Of a stretch of 64,000 nt of DNA, positions 19,386 through 33,328 are shown piece after piece. Within the stretch, counting starts at the first letter, position 1; each line of letters opens with the position of its first letter. This stretch comes from Candidatus Entotheonellaceae bacterium. Its GTDB lineage: Bacteria > Tectomicrobia > Entotheonellia > Entotheonellales > Entotheonellaceae. The stretch lies in assembly GCA_965238075.1 (NCBI GenBank), contig OZ250173.1, positions 96,001 through 160,000 of the forward strand, given 5' to 3'. Made by a program: the position numbers and the translations under genes. The notes under the pieces are model-generated. The model made no database searches. It saw nothing but the letters and a program-made list of their open reading frames with translations, and had not been told where the DNA came from.

Positions 19386-20813
19386 ATGAAACCATCGAAC
19401 ACGTTTGTCCCGAACCGGTTCGAAGCCGATGCGCTGGCGCCTCGACTTCACGCTCTTGTGGAAGCGGGGGGTATCGAAGCCGCCCGCCACCGGTGTTCGC
19501 TTCTGGTCAGCATGACCTTCGAATGCCCCCCGGTTTTGCCGTTATCCATTTTTCGTCAGGCGCAACCGCCACGCCTCCTTTGGCACCAACCCGATGAGGG
19601 TATGGCCATGGCGGGGGTTGGGTTTGCCGTTTCGCTTATGGGGTCCGGCGAGGGTCGATTCACGCAAGTAAATGCGGCGTACCGCCGATTGGTTTCGGAA
19701 GCACAGATCGATACCTGTCCATCCTATCCGTTGTCGGCCCCCGTGGCCCTCGGCGGTTTCGCGTTCGATCCCTCGGCGCCAGCCAACCCCGTCTGGGAAG
19801 CGTACCCGGACGCCCTTCTGATCGTCCCGCGATTCTTTTTCATGTCTGCTGAACATGCCGCCTGGTGTACGATCAATCTGCAGGTTTCGGCGGGCTGTGA
19901 TCCCGATGCTGTGACTGACGATATCGTATGCGAGTTTGCGGCGTTGATGCCGGTCGATGCCGATCCTGTCGCCGATCGGCAGCCCGCGATGTGGGCGCCG
20001 ATGAACGACCCGTTCGGCGCGTGGGAACAGCAGGTGCACGACATCGTGCAGGCCATTCAACGGGGCGCCGTGCAGAAAGTCGTGCTGGCGCGGGAGTTGC
20101 ACCTTCGGGCGCAAGCCGATTTTGACGTAGACATAGCGCTGCGACGATTGGCAGCGGCGGATAGGCATTGCACCCTCTTTGCCCTGGACACCGGTTCTGG
20201 CTGCATGATAGGCGCAACCCCGGAGCGCCTGGTCCGCCTGCAGGGCCGGACCGTGCAGGTGGATTGCCTGGCGGGCTCCACGGCGCGGGGTGACACCGAG
20301 CACGCGGACCGCCTGCTTGGGGAAGCCTTGCTTCACAGTGACAAGGATCGCCGCGAACATGGCCTGGTTGTGCGCACACTTCACGAGGCCCTGTCGTCGT
20401 ACTGCCTGTCCCTGCAGGTTCCCGATGCGCCTCGGCTACTCCGACTACCCGAGGTTCAGCACCTGCACACGCCGTTGCAAGGTACCCTGCCCGCTGGTTC
20501 CAGTATCCTGGATTTGGTGGCGCAACTGCATCCGACGGCTGGCGTTGGCGGTGTACCCCGCCCAGAGGCGCTCGACCTGATCCGGGAGCAGGAGCGCCTG
20601 GGCCGGGGCTGGTATGCAGGGCCGGTCGGCTGGATCGACGCGCACGGCGGTGAGTTCGTGGTTGGCATCCGGTCGGCTTTGGTCCGCGGCAGCGAGGCTT
20701 GGCTGTACGCCGGCTGCGGTATTGTGAAGGGTTCGGATCCTCGCAGCGAATACGAGGAATCCTGTCTGAAACTGCGCCCCATGCTGGCCGCGCTCAGCGA
20801 GACGGCATCATGA
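19386..20813 (+). CDS. menF: Isochorismate synthase
   Basis: GGFAFD, KVVLAR, GATPERL, LAGS, KDRREH, VQHLHT, LHPT, RGWYAGPVGW, YAGCGIV. Confidence 0.92.
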   Translation: MKPSNTFVPNRFEADALAPRLHALVEAGGIEAARHRCSLLVSMTFECPPVLPLSIFRQAQPPRLLWHQPDEGMAMAGVGFAVSLMGSGEGRFTQVNAAYRRLVSEAQIDTCPSYPLSAPVALGGFAFDPSAPANPVWEAYPDALLIVPRFFFMSAEHAAWCTINLQVSAGCDPDAVTDDIVCEFAALMPVDADPVADRQPAMWAPMNDPFGAWEQQVHDIVQAIQRGAVQKVVLARELHLRAQADFDVDIALRRLAAADRHCTLFALDTGSGCMIGATPERLVRLQGRTVQVDCLAGSTARGDTEHADRLLGEALLHSDKDRREHGLVVRTLHEALSSYCLSLQVPDAPRLLRLPEVQHLHTPLQGTLPAGSSILDLVAQLHPTAGVGGVPRPEALDLIREQERLGRGWYAGPVGWIDAHGGEFVVGIRSALVRGSEAWLYAGCGIVKGSDPRSEYEESCLKLRPMLAALSETAS

Positions 20814-22594
20814 CCCAGGCCAGTGCCCTGCGCACCTTTGTTGATGCCTTTGTCGATGAATTGGCCCGCTGTGGTCTGCAACACGCCTGTATCTGCCCCG
20901 GCTCCCGCTCCACCCCTCTGGCGGTCCTGCTGCACCAACATCCCGGTATCAAAGTCTGGATGCATCTCGACGAGCGTGCGGCGGCATATTTTGCCTTGGG
21001 CCAGGCGAAGGCTTCTCGGCAACCCGTGGCAGTACTGGGCACGTCGGGCACTGCCACGCTCAACTTCGCGCCGGCGGTTGCGGAGGCGTTCTACGCCCAC
21101 GTGCCGCTGCTGGTTCTCACCGCTGATCGTCCGCCGGAATTGCAAGAGGTCGGCGCTCCGCAAACCATTGACCAATCACGGCTTTATGGACGCCATGTGA
21201 AAAGGTGCGTCGAGATGCCGCTGCCGGAAGGCGGTCTGGTTGCGGTGCGCTACGTCCGCACCACCGCCAGCCGAGCGATGGCGGACTGTCGCGCCGAACG
21301 TCCCGGACCGGTGCACGTCAATTTCCCGTTTCGCGAGCCATTGATCCCCATTGGGCAAGATGATGCGACGACCCAACGCGGCACGGCGCCTTATGTGACT
21401 GTCACTCAGGGGCTGCAGGCACTCCGCCCCCCCGAGGTCACAATGCTGGCCGCCCAACTGCGTGGCGTGCAACGCGGCCTGATCGTTTGCGGTCCGCAAG
21501 ACGACCCCGACTTTCCCGGAGCGGTTGTGCAGTTGTCGAAGGAGCTACAGTTTCCCCTGCTGGCAGACGTGTTGTCCCAGGTGCGCCGCGGCACGCACGA
21601 CACGTCCTATGTTATCGACAGTTACGACGCCTTTTTGCGGGACTCGCAAACCGCGCGCGATCTGGTCCCGGAGCTCATACTGCGATTTGGCGCCACGCCG
21701 GTTTCCAAGCCGCTGCAGTTGTATCTGCAATGCTTGACGGCCAGCCGCCAAATGCTGATCGCGCCGGCAGATGACTGGCACGACCCGGCGCTGGTCGCAA
21801 CCGACAGGTTGCAAGTTGCTCCCCATGCTCTCTGCGAGTCATTGCTGCCGATCTTGGAGAAAACACCTCGTCAAGGCATCACCGCCAGCGCTTGGCGCCG
21901 CGAGTGGGAGCGGCTGAACGCTCAAACACGCGCCGCCCTGAAAGAATGCCTGAGCGAGAATCCCGCCTTGAGCGAACCGAAGGTCTTCGCCGATCTGGAC
22001 GCGGTGCTGCCGCCGAACGCTACCCTTTTCGCCGGTAATAGCATGCCGGTGCGTGACCTCGATTCCTTTTTCGCCGCGGGCGCCCGACCGGCCCGCTTCC
22101 TGGCCAACCGAGGCGCCAGCGGCATCGACGGTGTGGTGTCAACCGCCCTAGGCGTCAGTTCCGTGAGTTCAGGTCCCTGCGTGCTGGTCATTGGCGATCT
22201 GTCCCTCTACCACGACATGAACGGTCTGCTGGCAGCCAAACAGCACCGTCTTCAGGCGACGATCGTGCTGCTGCACAACGACGGCGGCGGCATCTTCTCG
22301 TTCTTGCCGCAAGCCGAGGCCGTAGAGTCGTTCGAAGACCTGTTCGGCACCCCGCACGGCCTGGATTTTCGCCACGCGGCACAACTCTACGACCTGGACT
22401 ATTGCGAACCCGGGGACAGCCAGGCGTTTCGCACGGCCCTCGAAAAATCCTTCCACACCTCGGGCGTCACGATGATCGCCGTCCATACCAACCGGGACGC
22501 CAACGCCCGCCTGCATCGGAACATCTGGCAGATCGTGTCGCAACGGTTACACTCGACCACTCCACCAGAGCCAGCGTCATGCGCCTCACCGTGA
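20810..22594 (+). CDS. menD: SEPHCHC synthase
   Basis: CPGSRSTPL, DERAAAYFALG, TSGTA, GPVHVNFPFREPL, NSMPVRD, NRGASGIDG, GDLSLYHD. Confidence 0.95.
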   Translation: MTQASALRTFVDAFVDELARCGLQHACICPGSRSTPLAVLLHQHPGIKVWMHLDERAAAYFALGQAKASRQPVAVLGTSGTATLNFAPAVAEAFYAHVPLLVLTADRPPELQEVGAPQTIDQSRLYGRHVKRCVEMPLPEGGLVAVRYVRTTASRAMADCRAERPGPVHVNFPFREPLIPIGQDDATTQRGTAPYVTVTQGLQALRPPEVTMLAAQLRGVQRGLIVCGPQDDPDFPGAVVQLSKELQFPLLADVLSQVRRGTHDTSYVIDSYDAFLRDSQTARDLVPELILRFGATPVSKPLQLYLQCLTASRQMLIAPADDWHDPALVATDRLQVAPHALCESLLPILEKTPRQGITASAWRREWERLNAQTRAALKECLSENPALSEPKVFADLDAVLPPNATLFAGNSMPVRDLDSFFAAGARPARFLANRGASGIDGVVSTALGVSSVSSGPCVLVIGDLSLYHDMNGLLAAKQHRLQATIVLLHNDGGGIFSFLPQAEAVESFEDLFGTPHGLDFRHAAQLYDLDYCEPGDSQAFRTALEKSFHTSGVTMIAVHTNRDANARLHRNIWQIVSQRLHSTTPPEPASCASP

Positions 22595-23412
22595 ATCGCG
22601 TGACCTATCACGTTGAGATGCAAGGAAGCGGCCCTGCGGTCTTCTTCCTGCACGGTTTTACTGGTAGTAGCGAGAACTGGACGCCGCATCTGGCGGCCCT
22701 GAGGGCGTTTACGACCGTTCGCGTCGACTTCTTGGGGCATGGCCGCTCCGACGCACCGGCCGCCATGCATCGCTATGGCATGGAAGCTTGCGTTGACGAT
22801 GTCCTGGCGATCCAGGATCACTTGGGCATACAGTGCTGCGCCATCGTGGGCTATTCGATGGGCGGCCGGGTCGCCATGCGAGTCGCCCTGCAGGCACCTG
22901 AACGCCTGTGGGCGTTGGTGCTGGAAAGCGCGTCCCCCGGCATTGCGAATCCGACCGACAGGAAGGAGCGGGTGATTCAGGACGCGAGGCTGGCGGAACA
23001 AATCAGAAAGGAAGGCGTGGCGGCCTTCGCGGATTACTGGCAGGCGCTGCCACTTTTCGCCAGCCAGTCGCGTCTGCCGGAGACGGCCCGGCAGGTATTG
23101 CGGGACCAACGCCTGCAACACACCGCAGAGGGCCTTGCCAATAGCCTGGAGGGTCTCGGCGCCGGTATGCAGGAGCCGGTGCTGCAGCGTTTGCGGGGCC
23201 TGCGCCTGCCCGTCCTGTTGTTGGCGGGGGCGCTGGATGGCAAATACTGCGGCTTGGCCAATGAGATGGCGAACAGGCTGCCGTGTAGCCGCGTGCACAT
23301 CGTGGCGGACGCCGGCCACGCCGTACATCTGGAGCGGCCCGCGGCATTCGATGCCGCCGTGCGAGACTTTCTGCAGGCGCATGCCCCAATCCCATCCGAG
23401 CCCTTGCCATGA
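22579..23412 (+). CDS. menH: SHCHC synthase
   Basis: LHGFTG, GYSMGGR, LESASPG, D.K, AGHAVHLE; follows menD. Confidence 0.92.
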   Translation: MRLTVNRVTYHVEMQGSGPAVFFLHGFTGSSENWTPHLAALRAFTTVRVDFLGHGRSDAPAAMHRYGMEACVDDVLAIQDHLGIQCCAIVGYSMGGRVAMRVALQAPERLWALVLESASPGIANPTDRKERVIQDARLAEQIRKEGVAAFADYWQALPLFASQSRLPETARQVLRDQRLQHTAEGLANSLEGLGAGMQEPVLQRLRGLRLPVLLLAGALDGKYCGLANEMANRLPCSRVHIVADAGHAVHLERPAAFDAAVRDFLQAHAPIPSEPLP

Positions 23413-24518
23413 GAGTGGCCAGACTCGCTTGCACGCCGTATTGCATACCGTTTCGCCGGCCGTTTGCCACCGCGCACGGCATCCAGACCGAGCGTCGCGG
23501 CGTCCTGCTTCAACTGCATACGGATAATGGCCTGGTTGGCCTAGGCGAAGCGGCGCCGATACCGGGCAGCGCTTCTCGGGCGTGGTCCGATGTGGCAACG
23601 CTTCTTGAGGCTGTGCAGGTATCGTTGCCCGGCAAACGGTTGGAAGAAATGATGGACGTTATGAGGCCGGTGGGCCATCTGCATCCCGCTGCCGTCGCTG
23701 CCGTGCGTTGTGGTCTCGACACGGCAGCCTGCGACGTGCTGGCGCAGGCTGCGGGCACGCCGGTGGCGTTGTGGCTGCAGAGGGAATCCTCCGAGACGGT
23801 GCCGGTGAACGCCACCATCGCGCTTCCCAACGCGGCGTCAGCGGCCGATGCGGCGGCAAAGGCACGGGCGTCGGGCTTCCCATGCGTCAAGTTGAAGGTC
23901 GGTATGGCGGCGGGTGTGGAGGCGGAACGTCAACGCGTCGCGGCAGTCAGGAAGGCTATCGGGAATCGGTTGAAATTGCGCCTCGACGCCAATGGCGCGT
24001 GGGATGTGGAACAGGCCATTTGTACGATTCAGGCCCTGGAACCGTACGACATCGAACTCGTTGAGCAGCCGGTGGCCTGCGGGGATGTTCAGGCGCTGCG
24101 GCAGGTGCTGGCGGCCGTGGGTACACCCATTGCCGCCGATGAGGACGTCGATAGTGTTGCGGCGGCAGAGCGTGTGCTGGGAGCCGGTGCGGCTCAGGTG
24201 CTGGTCATCAAGCCGATGGTGGTTGGGGGATTACGGCCGGCCCGCCAGATCATCGAACGCGCTCAGTCCCAAGGGGTCTCGTGCATCGTGACCACAACGC
24301 TCGATGCCGGCATTGGCACCGCCGCGGCACTGCACCTCGCGGCCACCCTGCCCACCACCGGCTTGGCCTGCGGCCTGGCGACCGGCGCCCTTCTGACGAC
24401 CGACCTGCTAACGACGCCTCTGACCGTCCGTGATGGCGGCATGCAACGGCCCAGCGCCGCCGGGGTCGGCGTGCGGCTCGACGAGGAAGCCGTTGAACGC
24501 CACCGCCAACCGTTATGA
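23409..24518 (+). CDS. menC: o-succinylbenzoate synthase
   Basis: Enolase superfamily: GEAAP, VPVNA, KLKVG, RLDANGAW, EQP, AADE, IKPM. Confidence 0.88.
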   Translation: MRVARLACTPYCIPFRRPFATAHGIQTERRGVLLQLHTDNGLVGLGEAAPIPGSASRAWSDVATLLEAVQVSLPGKRLEEMMDVMRPVGHLHPAAVAAVRCGLDTAACDVLAQAAGTPVALWLQRESSETVPVNATIALPNAASAADAAAKARASGFPCVKLKVGMAAGVEAERQRVAAVRKAIGNRLKLRLDANGAWDVEQAICTIQALEPYDIELVEQPVACGDVQALRQVLAAVGTPIAADEDVDSVAAAERVLGAGAAQVLVIKPMVVGGLRPARQIIERAQSQGVSCIVTTTLDAGIGTAAALHLAATLPTTGLACGLATGALLTTDLLTTPLTVRDGGMQRPSAAGVGVRLDEEAVERHRQPL

Positions 24519-27686: not shown

Positions 27687-28637
27687 TTACTGTCGGGCTT
27701 GCGCCCGTAATTCGTCATACGCCTCACGAATCACCGTCAGATGCCGCTCTTCCTCCTCGGCGAATTGCTCGAAGATGGCCCGGCCTTGCGGCTTGTCGAC
27801 CTGGTTGGCGTAGTGGCGGAAAAATTCGTATGACCGGCGCTCAGCGTCCATGGCCGCCTGCAGGGCTTCGGTGGGGCCGGCCGAGAGTACCATTTGCCGG
27901 ATGTGCTCACGGCCTTTCGGGAAGATGCTTTCGAGACGTTCGTAATCGAACTGCAACAACGCCGGTTCGTCGTCCAGCCAGGCGTGGCTCTGCCGCAGGG
28001 CGTCAAACTCTGCCTGCAATACTTCCAGGTGCTCTCTCTCCTCAACGGCCAGGCGCGAAAAAACCTCCCGCGTCATCGCGTCACCCGTGGCCTCCAGGGC
28101 ATGGTTGTAAAAATGCAAGCCCTGCTGCTCATTGGTAATAGCCATTTCCAGAGCGTCACGGGCGAGGATGACTTCCAATTCCCTGCCCGTGCCGTGGCGG
28201 CTGGACGGCGGCGCCACCTTCTTGCAGTCCGTGCACACGCTGAGGATACGCACCGCGTGGGACTGCGGCGTGAAATCGTGCTGCTGCTGCGCCTGACGGA
28301 GCAGGGATTCCAACTCCGGGCTGAGAAACTCGACGGTGCGGTTGCAGGAGGAGCAGATGATGTGGTGATGCTCGAAGCGGTTGGGTTCGTAGCGTTGGGT
28401 GCCGTCGCCGTAGTCCATGGAACGCGCCAGGCCGCAGCCCTCAAGAAGCCGCAGGGTGCGGTAGACGGTGGCGAAGCCAACGCGCGGGCTCTTCTGGCGA
28501 ACCTGCTCGTGCAGTTCCTGGGCGGAGAAGTGCCCCTTGGAGGCGAGAAACACCTCCAGAATGTCGCTGCGGGGTTTGGAATGTTTGAGGTTCTGGCTGC
28601 GGAGATAGTCTTCGAAAATCTCGAATTCATCAGGCAT
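27687..28637 (-). CDS. Fur-family regulator fused to a C-terminal rubrerythrin/ferritin-like domain
   Basis: Fur: HFSAQEL, GFATVYRTL, RYE, EHHHIICSSC, VEF, CTDC. Ferritin-like: ALEMAITNE...FY, EEREH, ALQAAMDAE, EEERH. Confidence 0.9.
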   Translation of the reverse strand: MPDEFEIFEDYLRSQNLKHSKPRSDILEVFLASKGHFSAQELHEQVRQKSPRVGFATVYRTLRLLEGCGLARSMDYGDGTQRYEPNRFEHHHIICSSCNRTVEFLSPELESLLRQAQQQHDFTPQSHAVRILSVCTDCKKVAPPSSRHGTGRELEVILARDALEMAITNEQQGLHFYNHALEATGDAMTREVFSRLAVEEREHLEVLQAEFDALRQSHAWLDDEPALLQFDYERLESIFPKGREHIRQMVLSAGPTEALQAAMDAERRSYEFFRHYANQVDKPQGRAIFEQFAEEEERHLTVIREAYDELRAQARQ

Positions 28638-28797
28638 GAGGATACCTTTTTGGCGGGGTAGACGTCGTTGTTTGACCGTTCCCAACACGCGACGCGGAAG
28701 GCGCTATTGTACTTAAGGCGGTTGAAACGGGTCAAGCAAGGGCCCGGACGGCTCAGCCCGTTCAGCTGCCTGGCGCAGAACACGCCCTGTTTTGTTC

Positions 28798-28814
28798 TTG
28801 AAAACGGTTCTCAA
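28798..28814. promoter_or_regulatory. Fur-box-like operator upstream of the Fe3+ transporter
   Basis: TTGAAAAC-G-GTTCTCAA near-palindrome overlapping a TTGAAA -35-like hexamer. Confidence 0.75.
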
Positions 28815-28880
28815 CATCATAATAATACCCCCAATGCGCACCTACCCGTTTATCCCACTCTGTGGAGGGAGTCGAAACCC

Positions 28881-29942
28881 ATGCCTGATAGAAGAGCGGC
28901 CCATTTTGCTCGTGAAACTGCAGCGGCGCGGCGCGGCGCTCTGCTGCGGGGCCTGATCGCTCTGACCCTGCTGGCGCTCATCGGCTGGCCGGTGATCGCC
29001 CTGTCACAAACGCTGATCGTCTATTCCGGTCGGGGAGAGAGATTCACCAAGCCCGTGTTGGAGGCTTTTACGAAGCAGACAGGTATCGCCGTGCAGGTGC
29101 AAACGGGTGCCTCCGGCGCGTTGCTGGCCAAGCTGCAGGTGGAAGGCGAGCGTAGCCCGGCGGATGTCTTCATTACCAATTACGTTGGTGTGCTGGAGGA
29201 GGCGCGGCGGCATGGCTTGCTAGCGCCGGTGATCGCACCGACGCTGACGCAGATCGCCCCCGAGTTTCGCGCTGTGGATGATACCTGGCTGGCATTCTCG
29301 GCGCGCCTGCGGGTCATCGTGTACAACACCGGCATGATCCAGCCCGGCGCCATCACCTCGCTGCTGGAGCTTGCCGATCCCAAATGGCAGGGTCAGGTGG
29401 GCACGGTGACGAGCGGCAACCAGTCGTTTATCGGCGGCCTCAGCGCCATCTATGCGCTGCAGGGCGAGGCGGCCACCGAGGCGTTCCTGCGCGGCCTCAA
29501 GGCTAACTCGGAGGGCCGGGTGCTGCCGAAGCACACGCCGGTGGTTTCGGCCGTGGCGGCTGGGCAGTTTCCCCTGGGCTACGTGAATCATTATTACTAC
29601 TACCGTCATAAAGCCAAGGAACCGGACGCGCCGCTGGACATCCTGATACCGGACCAGCAGGACGGCCAAATGGGCGCCGTGGTCACGGTTGCTGGCGCCG
29701 CCGTTCTTAAGGCAGCCAAGAACCCGGAGGCGGCTCAGGAATTTATGGCTTTCCTGATTTCTCCCGCCGGCCAACAGATATTTGCGGCGGTCAACTACGA
29801 GTACCCCGTCAACCCGAGCGTTCCTGCCCATGAGGCCGTCGTTCCGCGCGACCGCATCAAGATCGCGCCGGTCAATCTGTCGATGGCGCACGCCAGCCGA
29901 GACAAGGCGATTGGGTTGATCGACAAGGTTGGGTTGGACTAA
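28881..29942 (+). CDS. fbpA: Fe3+ ABC transporter substrate-binding protein (FbpA/FutA-like)
   Basis: VYSGR, EGERSPADVF, R.RVIVYN, LADPKW, VNHYYY, NYEYP. Confidence 0.88.
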   Translation: MPDRRAAHFARETAAARRGALLRGLIALTLLALIGWPVIALSQTLIVYSGRGERFTKPVLEAFTKQTGIAVQVQTGASGALLAKLQVEGERSPADVFITNYVGVLEEARRHGLLAPVIAPTLTQIAPEFRAVDDTWLAFSARLRVIVYNTGMIQPGAITSLLELADPKWQGQVGTVTSGNQSFIGGLSAIYALQGEAATEAFLRGLKANSEGRVLPKHTPVVSAVAAGQFPLGYVNHYYYYRHKAKEPDAPLDILIPDQQDGQMGAVVTVAGAAVLKAAKNPEAAQEFMAFLISPAGQQIFAAVNYEYPVNPSVPAHEAVVPRDRIKIAPVNLSMAHASRDKAIGLIDKVGLD

Positions 29943-29945
29943 ACC

Positions 29946-31574
29946 GTGCACGGGCTTGCTACCGCCCAGGTTTCATGGCCGCGCCATGCCGGCCCTTGGC
30001 ATCTCAAGCCGCTGAGCCTGATCGCGTTGGTCGTGGCACTGCTCACCGTTATGCCGCTGGCCTACGTGGTGGGCAATGCTCTGCTGGTGTCGGGCGACGT
30101 GTGGGTGCAGCTATGGCAGGGTCGGGTGCCGGAACTATTGTTCAACACGCTGCGTTTGGCGGCGGGGGTGGCCGCGGTGACTCTGGTATCGGGGGTTGGT
30201 CTGGCATGGTTGGTGGTGCGCTACGACTTTCCCGGACGCGGGGTGTGGACCTGGCTGCTGGCGGCGCCGCTCGGCATCCCGCCCTACATCATGGCCTATG
30301 TGTATACGGAGATGTTCGCCTATTGGGGTCCCTTGCGGCCCCTTGTGCAGGGCGTCCTGGGAGCCGACGCTCAGCTGCCGGCTCTGTACGATTCATTTCC
30401 GGGCGCTGTGCTGATCCTCAGCCTCGCCACCTATCCTTACGTTTATTTGTTGAGTCGCGCCGCCTTTCTGCGGACCAACGTGGCCTACGAGGAGGCCGCA
30501 CGGCTGTCCGGTGCGGGGCGCTGGCGCGCCTGGCTGCGGGTGGTGCTGCCGATGCAACGGCCAGCGGTTGCGGCGGGATTATTTCTCGTCTGCCTGTACG
30601 TCATGGCGGACTTCGGCGCCGTGTCGATTCTGCGCTACTCGACGTTCACGCGGGCGGTGTACGTGCAGATGACCGGGCGCTACGACCTGACGGGCGCCGC
30701 CGCCCTGAGCCTGATGCTGGTGGTGCTAAGCCTCGCCTTCTTTGCGGCTGAGCGCCATTTTCGCCGCCGTAGCCGGTTCTTTCAGACTACCGCGGGATAT
30801 CGTCCCGGCAGCCGCGCGGCGCTGACGCGCTGGCATGCCGCCTTGGCATGCTGCGCCTGTACGGCTGTGCTCGGGCTGGCCTTCGGCGTCCCGGTGGCAT
30901 ACCTGGGCGTGGAGGCCGCGACCCACATCAGCGAGGGCGCTCTGGACGGCGCCTTCTGGGGCTACGCGCGCAACAGCTTCCTGGGCGCGGCCGCGGCCGC
31001 TACGGTTGCCGTCGCCTGCGCCGTGCCGATGGCCTACGTCGCCCTGCGCCGTCCGAGTCGCGGCCACAGCCTGTTACTGCATGCCGCCTACGCCGGCTAC
31101 GTGTTGCCGGGACCGATCGTCGCCTTGGGTCTGATCTTCTGCACGGCGCACCTGATGTCCCCGATCTACGGGACCGTGGCGGTCGTCGTGCTGGCCTACA
31201 TGGTGCGTTTCTTTCCGCAGTGTTTGCAGGCCGGGGAGGCGGCGCTGCACCAGATCACCCCCGCGCTTGAGGAAGCCGGGCGCTGCGCGGGAGCTCCCCT
31301 CTGGCGGGTGTTGTGGCGGGTCACGCTGCCGCTCATGCGCCCGGGATTGATCACCGGCTGGGTTCTGGTCTTCGTCAACGCGATGAAGGAACTTCCTGCC
31401 ACGCTGTTGCTTCGTCCTGTCGGTTTTGACACCCTGGCGGTCCGTATCTGGATCGAAACCAGCGAGGAATTTTACGCCCAGGCGGCGCCGGCGGCGTTGC
31501 TGCTGATTTTGGTAACGCTTCCCCTCTTGGCCTTCGCGCTGTCTTACGGCAGTGTGGAAAGGAGCACGGCATGA
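29946..31574 (+). CDS. fbpB: Fe3+ ABC transporter permease (FbpB-like)
   Basis: Duplicated permease, YPYVYL, EEAAR..G, DFGAV, KELPATLLLRP.GFDTLA. Confidence 0.9.
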   Translation: MHGLATAQVSWPRHAGPWHLKPLSLIALVVALLTVMPLAYVVGNALLVSGDVWVQLWQGRVPELLFNTLRLAAGVAAVTLVSGVGLAWLVVRYDFPGRGVWTWLLAAPLGIPPYIMAYVYTEMFAYWGPLRPLVQGVLGADAQLPALYDSFPGAVLILSLATYPYVYLLSRAAFLRTNVAYEEAARLSGAGRWRAWLRVVLPMQRPAVAAGLFLVCLYVMADFGAVSILRYSTFTRAVYVQMTGRYDLTGAAALSLMLVVLSLAFFAAERHFRRRSRFFQTTAGYRPGSRAALTRWHAALACCACTAVLGLAFGVPVAYLGVEAATHISEGALDGAFWGYARNSFLGAAAAATVAVACAVPMAYVALRRPSRGHSLLLHAAYAGYVLPGPIVALGLIFCTAHLMSPIYGTVAVVVLAYMVRFFPQCLQAGEAALHQITPALEEAGRCAGAPLWRVLWRVTLPLMRPGLITGWVLVFVNAMKELPATLLLRPVGFDTLAVRIWIETSEEFYAQAAPAALLLILVTLPLLAFALSYGSVERSTA

Positions 31575-32629
31575 CTCCGGTATTATCGCTGCAGGCAATC
31601 GGCAAGGCGTTCGAGCCTGGCATGCCGGTGCTGCAGGACGTCTCGCTGCGCATCGAGCCCGGTGCCATGGTCTGTCTGCTTGGTCCCAGCGGCTGCGGCA
31701 AGACCACGCTGCTGCGCCTGGTCGCGGGATTCGAGGAGCCCGACGCCGGTGCAATTCACTTGGGGGGCCAACTGGTCAGCCGTCCCGGCCACGTGGTGGC
31801 GCCGGAAAAACGCCACATAGGCATGGTTTTTCAAGACTACGCCCTCTTCCCACATATGACGGTGGCCCAGAACATTGTGTTTGGCCTGTTTCGCCGCCCG
31901 GCTACCCACCGCGACCGCCGCCTTGCCGACCTGCTGCAACTGGTGGGTCTGCAGGACATGGCCAAACGTTATCCGCACGAGCTCTCCGGCGGCCAGCAGC
32001 AACGCGTCGCTCTGGCTCGCGCTCTGGCTCCCGGTCCGCAACTCCTGCTGCTCGATGAACCGTTCAGCAATCTGGACGTCAACCTGCGTCGCCAGCTTAG
32101 GCAGGAGATGCAGGACGTTTTGCGGCGTACGGACATGACCACCATTCTCGTTACCCACGATCAGGAAGAAGCCCTCAGCTTGGCTGACACACTCGCTATT
32201 CTCGATCAGGGCCGCGTCGTGCAGTACGACACCCCGGAGGCCATCGTGCAGCGCCCCTGCACCCGTTTCGTGGCCGAGTTCCTCGCCCTCGGGCACTTCC
32301 TACCCGGCGAAATCCGCGACCACTGCATCGTCACCGAAATGGGTCCCGTCCGCCTCGACCCCGACATGCCCACTGTCCCGGACGGCTGCCGCGAAGTCGA
32401 CCTCCTGATTCCGCCCGAATGCCTCACGCTGTGCGACAACGGCCACGGCACCCGCGCCCGGGTAACGCAGATTACCTTTCAGGGCACCCGCAAGCTCTAC
32501 ACTGTCCGCCTTCCCTCCGGGGCCCACTTGCAAGGCCTCTGCGCCCACGATGCCCCCCTGCAAACCGGCGCGCAAATCAACGTGCGCTATGAACCCACGG
32601 TTCTGATTACCTTCCCCAGCGAGCCTTGA
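31571..32629 (+). CDS. fbpC: Fe3+ ABC transporter ATP-binding protein (FbpC-like)
   Basis: GPSGCGKTT, VFQDYALFPH, LSGGQQQR, DEPFSNLD, C-terminal TOBE-like region. Confidence 0.9.
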   Translation: MTPVLSLQAIGKAFEPGMPVLQDVSLRIEPGAMVCLLGPSGCGKTTLLRLVAGFEEPDAGAIHLGGQLVSRPGHVVAPEKRHIGMVFQDYALFPHMTVAQNIVFGLFRRPATHRDRRLADLLQLVGLQDMAKRYPHELSGGQQQRVALARALAPGPQLLLLDEPFSNLDVNLRRQLRQEMQDVLRRTDMTTILVTHDQEEALSLADTLAILDQGRVVQYDTPEAIVQRPCTRFVAEFLALGHFLPGEIRDHCIVTEMGPVRLDPDMPTVPDGCREVDLLIPPECLTLCDNGHGTRARVTQITFQGTRKLYTVRLPSGAHLQGLCAHDAPLQTGAQINVRYEPTVLITFPSEP

Positions 32630-32653: not shown

Positions 32654-32917
32654 AATGTGCCAGGCTATCGCAATGCAAGCGAGAGAAACCGAAATGGCCG
32701 AGTACATGGGCGAACGTTTTCTCGGTATCGAGAAGCGCATGGAGCAGGGATTTGCGCATGCCGAAATGGCGCGGGAACAGGACTTTGTTCATATCAACCC
32801 GCGTCTGGACGACATGAACAAGCGCTTCGACGCCTTGAGGAATACGATGCTGATGCTTTACATCCCCGTTGCCTGGCCATTTCGGGCGCGGTGGTGACGT
32901 ATCTTTTCTTCCAGTGA
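32654..32917 (+). pseudogene. Small coiled-coil/C-terminal TM protein (DUF1640-like), apparently frameshifted
   Basis: ERF..IEKRMEQGF...RLDDMNKRFD heptads. Hydrophobic tail MLMLYIPV continues as LAISGAVVTYLFFQ in another frame (~32871). Confidence 0.5.
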
Positions 32918-33014: not shown

Positions 33015-33033
33015 AATGATAACGGTTTTCATT
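33015..33033. promoter_or_regulatory. Second Fur-box-like operator, upstream of the XRE gene
   Basis: AATGATAACGGTTTTCATT. Its 15-bp core is 13/15 identical to the box at 28799-28813. Confidence 0.75.
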
Positions 33034-33079: not shown

Positions 33080-33328
33080 ATGGATTCGGTTGTTGCAGAC
33101 ATACAGGAGAGCCTGCTTCAGGACTTCGGCAGCCGGCTGCGGCAAATGCGCAAGATGCGGCGGCTGCGGCAACTGGACATGGCCTCGTTCGGGTTGAGCT
33201 ACAAGTACTACCAGCGGATCGAGGCGGGCCAGGTGAACCCCACCTTGATCACCCTGCATCGGCTGGCATCGGCGTTCAATGTGTCGGTGTACGATTTCTT
33301 CCGCCCGGAAGTGACGACGGAAGCATGA
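33080..33328 (+). CDS. XRE-family helix-turn-helix regulator (82 aa)
   Basis: FGSRLRQMR...Q.DMA...YYQRIEAG.VNPTL.TL.RLA.AF; GGAGG RBS. Confidence 0.9.
   Translation: MDSVVADIQESLLQDFGSRLRQMRKMRRLRQLDMASFGLSYKYYQRIEAGQVNPTLITLHRLASAFNVSVYDFFRPEVTTEA

Follow-up and report, generated by a model that had tools for sequence, protein, structure and literature searches.

A Fur Domain Fused to a Ferritin-Like Di-Iron Domain: A Probable Main Iron Regulator of Entotheonellaceae

Introduction

In Entotheonellaceae, a Fur-type repressor and a ferritin-like four-helix bundle are encoded in a single gene, the product of which probably serves the family as its main iron regulator. The gene was found in a stretch of 64,000 nucleotides from Candidatus Entotheonellaceae bacterium, hereafter the window (Table 1). 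Judging from the ligands, the box and the predicted regulon, the protein very probably represses iron uptake as an Fe(II)-Fur dimer acting via a palindrome. The fused bundle, from its ligand conservation, is likely to bind a di-iron centre, occupancy by Mn or Zn also being possible by sequence. That this built-in di-iron site modulates the iron response of the repressor is the reading we prefer, tentatively and at a little less than an even chance; the metal identity, DNA binding and domain coupling that it involves are what we infer.

Both modules are known and the architecture is already present in automatic databases, and the fusion itself is apparently unstudied. The earlier note on this DNA knew of no characterised example, and no description was found in the literature searched here, which lay largely outside the subscription journals. 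The available parts of the rubrerythrin survey PMC5114695 and of the Fur section of PMC11672702 mention no such fusion.

Table 1. Features of the fusion gene and its surroundings (positions in the window)
Feature	Position	Strand	Basis or remark
Fur + ferritin-like di-iron fusion gene (P0001), 316 aa	27687..28637	-	ORF, Pfam, homologues, contigs of other runs
Fur domain, residues 1-140	28218..28637	-	winged HTH, regulatory site, Cys4 site
Linker, residues 141-157 (17 residues)	28167..28217	-	141-147 modelled with low confidence
Ferritin-like four-helix bundle, residues 158-316	27690..28166	-	six di-iron ligands and Y177
FbpA/FutA-type Fe(III)-binding ABC protein	28881..29942	+	best PDB matches ferric-binding proteins, E 3.5e-47
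FbpB-type ABC permease	29946..31574	+	family level; iron role inferred from operon
FbpC-type ABC ATPase	31571..32629	+	family level; iron role inferred from operon
Candidate operator TTGAAAACGGTTCTCAA, 7-1-7 Fur-type palindrome	28798..28814	.	between fusion gene and fbpA
Sigma-70-like promoter match TTGAAA-17-AATAAT, 10/12, toward fbpA	28798..28826	+	consensus match
Promoter-like match toward fusion gene, ~60 bases from operator	28706..28735	-	consensus match
Second candidate operator ATGATAACGGTTTTCAT	33016..33032	.	highest score in the genome
Small XRE/HTH_3 regulator gene behind second box	33080..33328	+	Pfam; box and gene recur in other genera

Integrity and Distribution of the Fusion Gene

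Over positions 27687-28637, the plus strand is broken by stops and the single open frame lies on the minus strand, which confirms the 316-residue frame of Fur and ferritin-like parts claimed in the earlier note. Pfam FUR was matched at residues 15-131 (E 6e-32, 110.7 bits against a cut-off of 23.1) and Pfam Rubrerythrin (PF02915) in two stretches, also above the cut-off (E 3e-11). All the motifs quoted in that note were present, namely EHHHIIC (89-95), C95xxC98 and C135xxC138 in the Fur half, and ITNE170, EE200REH203, MDAE266 and EE296ERH299 in the bundle. The rubredoxin tail was absent as claimed; Pfam detects no such domain and the protein ends at helix D.

The weak points named in the note, homologues always occurring as two genes or a stop in the linker, were looked at and neither was encountered. 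In contigs from three other public runs, the linker is bridged and the gene has no insertion or deletion. At least 19 substitutions are listed inside the gene (55 less supported entries over the whole window were left out), and none of these 19 produces a stop. Among contigs from RNA libraries, X7 covers the gene whole and X17 covers it with a gap at 28209-28309, which does not imply transcription.

The joint FUR and Rubrerythrin architecture, whose distribution the note had wished to see checked, was borne out in homologues and genomes. The first search gave 198 homologues, 119 of the 120 listed carrying both Pfam domains in one chain; among the matches listed, those named by organism belong to Tectomicrobia or Entotheonella, one being called merely 'bacterium'. 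Within a phylum sample of 17 Tectomicrobia genomes, the fusion is single-copy and stop-free in 14/14 Entotheonellaceae genomes (6 genera); the remaining three, which belong to two other families, carry Fur genes of the stand-alone kind, and the C-terminal domain was not matched in them.

An exhaustive search with the C-terminal part yielded distant fusions at 27-35% identity, named as Acidobacteriota. A profile of five distant fusions matched 846 proteins at E 1e-40 or better; both domains are carried by 118 of the 120 matches listed, the named ones again being Acidobacteriota. A second homologue search yielded, with few differences, the Tectomicrobia-type set of the first. In metagenomes, both parts lie in one frame in 80/80 loci of acidobacterial type, a count biased toward fused forms, as patterns from the C-terminal part served to locate the loci and a full-length query to rank them. 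Acidobacterial Fur-ferritin-like clusters are also present in the Atlas, where the architecture is visible in automatic annotation.

The Acidobacteriota fusions have the same architecture as the Entotheonellaceae fusion at 31-41% identity, but they come from another phylum, mostly keep the site-3 His, and have no Entotheonellaceae box seen near their genes (see below). In trees of the two domains, which were quick, with SH-aLRT support only, midpoint drawing and long branches, all fused forms make one clade (SH-aLRT 99 for the bundle and 97 for Fur), and the Tectomicrobia fusions form a subclade within it (support 99). A single clade in both trees thus points to one origin and whole-gene transfer, for which Acidobacteriota would be the source if diversity is a guide.

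The probability that two adjacent genes are merely read through, by accident or neutrally, or that the assembly is at fault, is close to nil. Three short proteins without the Fur part (P0131, P0149 and P0169) do fall inside the fusion clade, and one 162-aa cluster mate lies on a 25-kb contig. However, the short proteins start at or just after the domain start and look like truncated gene calls, and those three lie on contigs under 2 kb. The fused state in all 14 genomes and 80 loci, the one fused clade and the bridging of the linker in other runs also speak against read-through. The fusion is one real, conserved gene and not an assembly artefact.

Some neighbouring architectures were observed as well. 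A separate Atlas cluster of 91 members, commonest in Bacillota, joins Fur, rubrerythrin and rubredoxin in 313 aa and probably arose independently, with a classical rubrerythrin as the fusion partner. The ferritin-like bundle also partners other signalling modules; in P0158, a response-regulator receiver domain is joined to the same stand-alone-type ferritin-like domain. P0017 and P0050 have internal deletions in the bundle, one being without helix C, and are assembly errors or decayed copies.

The Fur Domain

The Fur domain comprises a winged HTH with T57-V-Y-R60, a regulatory site made of H36/E84/H90/H92/E103 and a structural Cys4 site made of C95/C98/C135/C138. Residue counts were taken from an alignment of 128 of the 131 Tectomicrobia-type proteins (3 under 300 aa were left out) and all 123 Acidobacteriota-type proteins, which are mostly without taxonomy and were typed by similarity. 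The five regulatory ligands are complete in 125/128 proteins of the first type and 123/123 of the second (248/251), and the four Cys are kept in 251/251. Glu stands at E84 in 249/251 and at E103 in 251/251.

As described in the available part of PMC4866751, Asp occupies positions 85 and 104 in PerR, Glu occupies 104 in Fur, and Zur combines Cys at 85 with the lack of His37. The Fur half is of the iron-Fur type because its His/Glu ligand set has Glu at the Asp104 position. It resembles PerR (B. subtilis 2fe3) in the fold, the equivalents of His37, His91 and His93 and both CxxC motifs, but it has Glu, not Asp, at both the Asp85 and Asp104 positions as well as a predicted iron regulon; the PerR label was rejected on these Glu residues. 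The Zur label was also rejected, as E84 and H36 stand where Zur has Cys and no His, respectively. Membership of the Fur superfamily was seen by Pfam, Foldseek and the Cys4 site, and the regulatory site is that of iron-Fur. The NCBIfam Fur equivalog cut-offs were not reached (80 bits vs 200) because these models are lineage-bound.

The fusion shares the fold of winged HTH and dimerisation domain, Cys4, the His3/Glu2 site and an AT-rich 7-1-7 box ahead of iron uptake genes with iron-sensing Furs (C. jejuni 6d57/4ets, M. gryphiswaldense 4raz/4rb1-3, H. pylori 2xig, B. cereus 9ire). The structurally known Furs are single modules of 131-170 aa, whereas the fusion adds a 160-aa di-iron bundle and has the site-3 His replaced. 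This residue, the first His of HHxH, is E89 here, Q in 108/128 Tectomicrobia-type proteins and Q/E/R/L in at least 126/128. It is kept in 78/123 Acidobacteriota-type fusions, and therefore making up for site 3 cannot have been what first brought the fusion about. Site 3 is not found in all Furs, a replaced first His of HHxH is allowed, and site 3 gives graded responses (section 3.2.6), according to the available part of PMC11672702.

Other Fur-family genes were also inspected. This genome has one, in which Pro replaces the His37 equivalent. Six genomes of the window's genus contain two Fur-family genes each, the second being without His37 in the four inspected. An extra gene with the PerR pattern (H/D/H/H/D) occurs in 7/14 Entotheonellaceae genomes. 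The PerR-type genes (L034, L063-L068) belong to family genomes of other genera, and none was seen in the window's genus, the genomes of which are small (3.4-4.3 Mb).

Structure Model

Structure prediction, another check proposed in the earlier note, agreed with the two domains described there. In the AlphaFold2 model of the full fusion (alignment of 42 sequences, mean pLDDT 83, pTM 0.55), a Fur fold is followed by a linker of low confidence at 141-147 and by four long helices (151-183, 187-217, 255-279 and 283-315). The contact between the domains is not fixed by the model because of the low-confidence linker and the overall pTM. Foldseek with the full model matched Fur structures at E 2e-9, with only Fur entries among the matches. 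A wide structural search with the C-terminal part found the COG1633 protein 2oh3 (Z 15.4, rmsd 2.7, 134 aligned) and, further, Dps-like proteins, 2fzf (Z 13.6) and TM1526 1vjx (Z 12.9); 1vjx is also the best sequence match of the domain (E 0.006). A fold of the C-terminal domain alone, made without an alignment, had a pTM of 0.44 and found helical hairpins only, and it was discarded for the alignment-based full model.

The Ferritin-Like Domain

The bundle has the four helices and the E..ExxH..E..ExxH pattern of the ferritin-like di-iron carboxylate type, with E170, E200xxH203, E266 and E296xxH299 as ligands. All six are complete in 125/128 Tectomicrobia-type and 114/123 Acidobacteriota-type fusions (239/251) over a range of ~35% identity, and Y177 is kept in 247/251. 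Among 15 pairs of six congeneric genomes, dN/dS is ~0.08 in both domains. By these comparisons, the di-iron ligand set is under purifying selection.

The earlier note called this domain a rubrerythrin. The four-helix bundle and the six ligands were indeed found; the type, however, is TM1526/COG1633-like and not that of a true rubrerythrin, which here is a Pfam label. A classical rubrerythrin (D. vulgaris, P. furiosus) shares the PF02915 match and the E/ExxH/E/ExxH pattern, and most rubrerythrins have a rubredoxin domain, as stated in part of PMC5114695. The fusion, on the other hand, is without rubredoxin and has Ser or Ala in 249/251 proteins, and never Glu, at the position of the seventh Glu (S269 here). 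We take this position, three residues after the helix-C Glu, to be that of the seventh rubrerythrin ligand, E97 of D. vulgaris. The seventh Glu and rubredoxin are features of peroxide-reducing rubrerythrins. Since it has neither, the domain is not a classical rubrerythrin, and that label was rejected; the Fur Cys4 site has a different fold from a rubredoxin Fe(Cys)4 domain. Pfam Ferritin scored 16.2 bits on the fusion, below the cut-off of 24.5, and a separate ferritin-family gene lies elsewhere in this genome.

The COG1633/TM1526 proteins 2oh3, 2fzf and 1vjx, structural-genomics entries titled uncharacterised, hypothetical or putative, are the best fold and sequence matches and have the same six ligands, but they are stand-alone. 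For residue comparison, we used 110 stand-alone relatives of 150-190 aa among the best 150 matches of the C-terminal search, three fragments of the fusion clade being left out. Their six ligands are complete in 105/110. At position 273, the symmetry mate of Y177 beside the metal site, they have Tyr in 100/110 and Phe in 9/110, whereas 250/251 fusions have Phe. Furthermore, R160, D161, P225, L228 and F292 are near-invariant in fusions only, the R160-D161 motif being absent from the nearest stand-alone relatives. Such fusion-specific invariance over ~35% identity suggests selection, and shared ancestry can explain part of it. The spacing from C138 to R160 is 18-22 residues in 251/251 fusions; this strict linker length together with the fusion-specific invariants suggests, from the alignment, a fixed contact between the domains.

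These features bear on the proposition that the bundle is a tethered enzyme without signalling, an independent ferroxidase or peroxide scavenger that shields the Fe-loaded repressor and nearby DNA from Fenton chemistry while Fur itself acts normally. The full six-ligand site with Y177, the common occurrence of the same site in stand-alone relatives, the flexible linker and the Dps-like and ferritin-like proteins among the closest folds are in line with it. MbfA provides a parallel in that its non-cage ferritin-like domain serves a fused iron-homeostasis partner and has ferroxidase activity, as reported in part of PMC7762939; its partner, however, is a VIT1-type membrane exporter and not a DNA-binding regulator. 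The MbfA NCBIfam model matched the fusion weakly, far below the cut-off. We consider a tethered enzyme unlikely, as an electron donor such as rubredoxin is neither fused to the bundle nor conserved in the neighbourhood, Phe takes the place of one of the site's two tyrosines, a low-copy regulator would be a poor bulk scavenger, and the strict linker and fusion-specific invariants suggest a fixed contact.

Among 79 full-length loci of acidobacterial type, 12 have E266N, or E170Q with E296Q/A, and the fusion is kept. An intact di-iron site is therefore not needed everywhere. The ligand-degenerate acidobacterial-type subclade has lost one to three ligands (L138, L139, L142-L144, L148, L153-L156, L162, L175; P0139) and is a natural control for experiments.

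The Candidate Operator and the Predicted Regulon

The fusion gene is divergent from an fbpABC operon. The -35 hexamer of the promoter match facing fbpA lies within the operator at 28798-28814; promoter-like matches, here consensus matches only, number 3 in the region vs 1.4 +/- 1.0 in shuffles. The two candidate boxes of the window, 4.2 kb apart, flank the operon, and TTGAAAACGGTTCTCAA is the only perfect match in the genome to its own palindromic consensus. Two other observations were made in the window. An 86-aa frame with no Pfam match lies between fbpC and the second box (32657-32917, +), and its presence varies among congeneric genomes, judging from spacing. At 19386-24518 (+), four genes appear by eye to be those of menaquinone synthesis, menF, menD, menH and menC.

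The box consensus is TGA(A/T/G)AA-n3-TT(T/C/A)TCA, and the 7-1-7 reading of the Fur box follows part of PMC7762939. Similar palindromes, one of them the textbook TGATAATGATTATCA, were found near the fusion gene in other genera, where the neighbours are genes for imelysin, DHOR, FTR1, ApbE with FMN-binding, ferritin-family, DUF2325 and FbpA-type proteins. A matrix of 10 sites from other genera gave 4 sites of at least 20 bits in this 3.35-Mb genome and 0 in each of 6 local shuffles; matches under 16 bits are at shuffle level. Two of the four sites are in the window, one lies before a second HTH_3 gene and one before a DUF2325 gene. The box was first defined from the window's site, and the training sites were chosen by their likeness to it; hence the linked sites are not independent, and the matrix result is only partly so.

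The exact degenerate pattern has 34 sites in 13/14 Entotheonellaceae genomes, against 0 for a reversed-pattern control. It was not found in one family genome (G005, 82% complete), nor in any of the three Tectomicrobia genomes without the fusion (81-95% complete). Of the 14 exact sites away from the fusion gene, 6 stand before genes of iron transport or storage (two of FbpA-type ABC, two of TonB receptors, hemP-exbB and the ferritin family), 3 before DUF2325 and 2 before HTH_3 genes. Iron uptake genes are thus preceded by an AT-rich inverted repeat, as is typical of Fur proper. The fusion protein, and not another protein, is probably what binds the box. The flanks of 80 acidobacterial-type genes (400,887 bases, not genomes) contain 0 matches to the Entotheonellaceae box at 16 bits.

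Several boxed genes may be recorded in their own right. An HTH_3 gene stands behind a candidate box in at least four genera (L039, L040, L041, L079), with a second boxed copy in this genome (G000:C1:187959-188162), and it may add a second tier to the iron regulon. The boxed DUF2325 gene G000:C1:1438425-1439698 (-) is split over two frames, by either a frameshift or an assembly error, while its relatives have one frame of 401-431 aa. A weak box of 12.9 bits at G000:C1:270078 (L098), 70 bases before an imelysin-DHOR pair, is a lead only; in G006, a strong box precedes this gene pair. In G001 (L041:9545-12888), the box is separated from the fusion gene by genes for ApbE, an FMN-binding protein and an outer-membrane protein, a set which presumably resembles flavinylation-linked iron uptake modules.

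If the bundle were a structural module, which dimerises or tetramerises the repressor for cooperativity or looping, its metal site would be structural or dispensable. The clustering of boxes (six within 18 kb of G006, besides the two here) would suit such a role, as would the survival of the fusion despite ligand changes in those 12/79 loci and in the 9/123 proteins without a ligand. Nevertheless, six ligands in 239/251 proteins over ~35% identity exceed what a scaffold needs, and we give a structural module only a slim chance.

The regulon also bears on a two-signal oxidant sensor, in which O2, H2O2 or NO at the di-iron site switches the repressor, which would take the place of PerR or of an NO sensor. 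Sites of the di-iron carboxylate kind are reactive toward O2, H2O2 and NO. The window's genus has only two Fur-family genes, with no PerR-type gene among those inspected, and the asymmetric Tyr/Phe pattern can be read as a site retuned in the fusion. Against this, no peroxide or NO defence gene was recognised among the box-preceded genes identified, and H/D/H/H/D paralogues of the PerR type coexist with the fusion in half of the family genomes. An oxidant sensor is, in our view, distinctly unlikely. The oxidative or nitrosative input put forward in the earlier note likewise lost ground to the iron-Fur ligands, the iron regulon, the separate PerR-type genes and the lack of the seventh Glu and rubredoxin.

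Proposed Mechanism

In our preferred reading, that of an iron-Fur with a modulating di-iron site, the protein would be an iron-responsive repressor, a dimer with a Zn-Cys4 structural site. Fe(II) bound at H36/E84/H90/H92/E103 would lead to occupation of the palindrome and thereby block the fbpABC and other iron uptake promoters. The fused bundle would hold a carboxylate-bridged di-iron centre, the loading or oxidation of which might alter how the tethered domains pack or oligomerise; alternatively, the bundle may hold and oxidise Fe(II) beside the repressor. As a result, repression would respond across a broader span of labile iron levels, or would depend on iron staying reduced. The bundle may also make up for the accessory metal site, which has degenerated in this lineage.

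A bolder proposition is a new class of one-component regulators, in which the redox state or a ligand (O2, peroxide, NO) of the di-iron centre allosterically gates an iron-Fur, and the loss of Tyr marks a change from catalyst to sensor. We regard it as rather unlikely. If the allosteric proposition were true, iron supply and redox state would together set iron uptake in one polypeptide in two largely uncultured phyla.

Significance

The present analysis adds a concrete candidate operator and regulon, a second phylum with the whole gene and a specific residue change. The candidate operator, the regulon and the residue signature make the design directly testable, with a soluble protein of 316 aa and a 17-bp site. 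The fusion spans Acidobacteriota, which are abundant in soil, and every Entotheonellaceae genome examined, from sponge symbionts and relatives. A Fur with its own di-iron centre would set the iron threshold, or tie it to oxygen chemistry, by a different route, and it would assign a function to the uncharacterised TM1526/COG1633 proteins.
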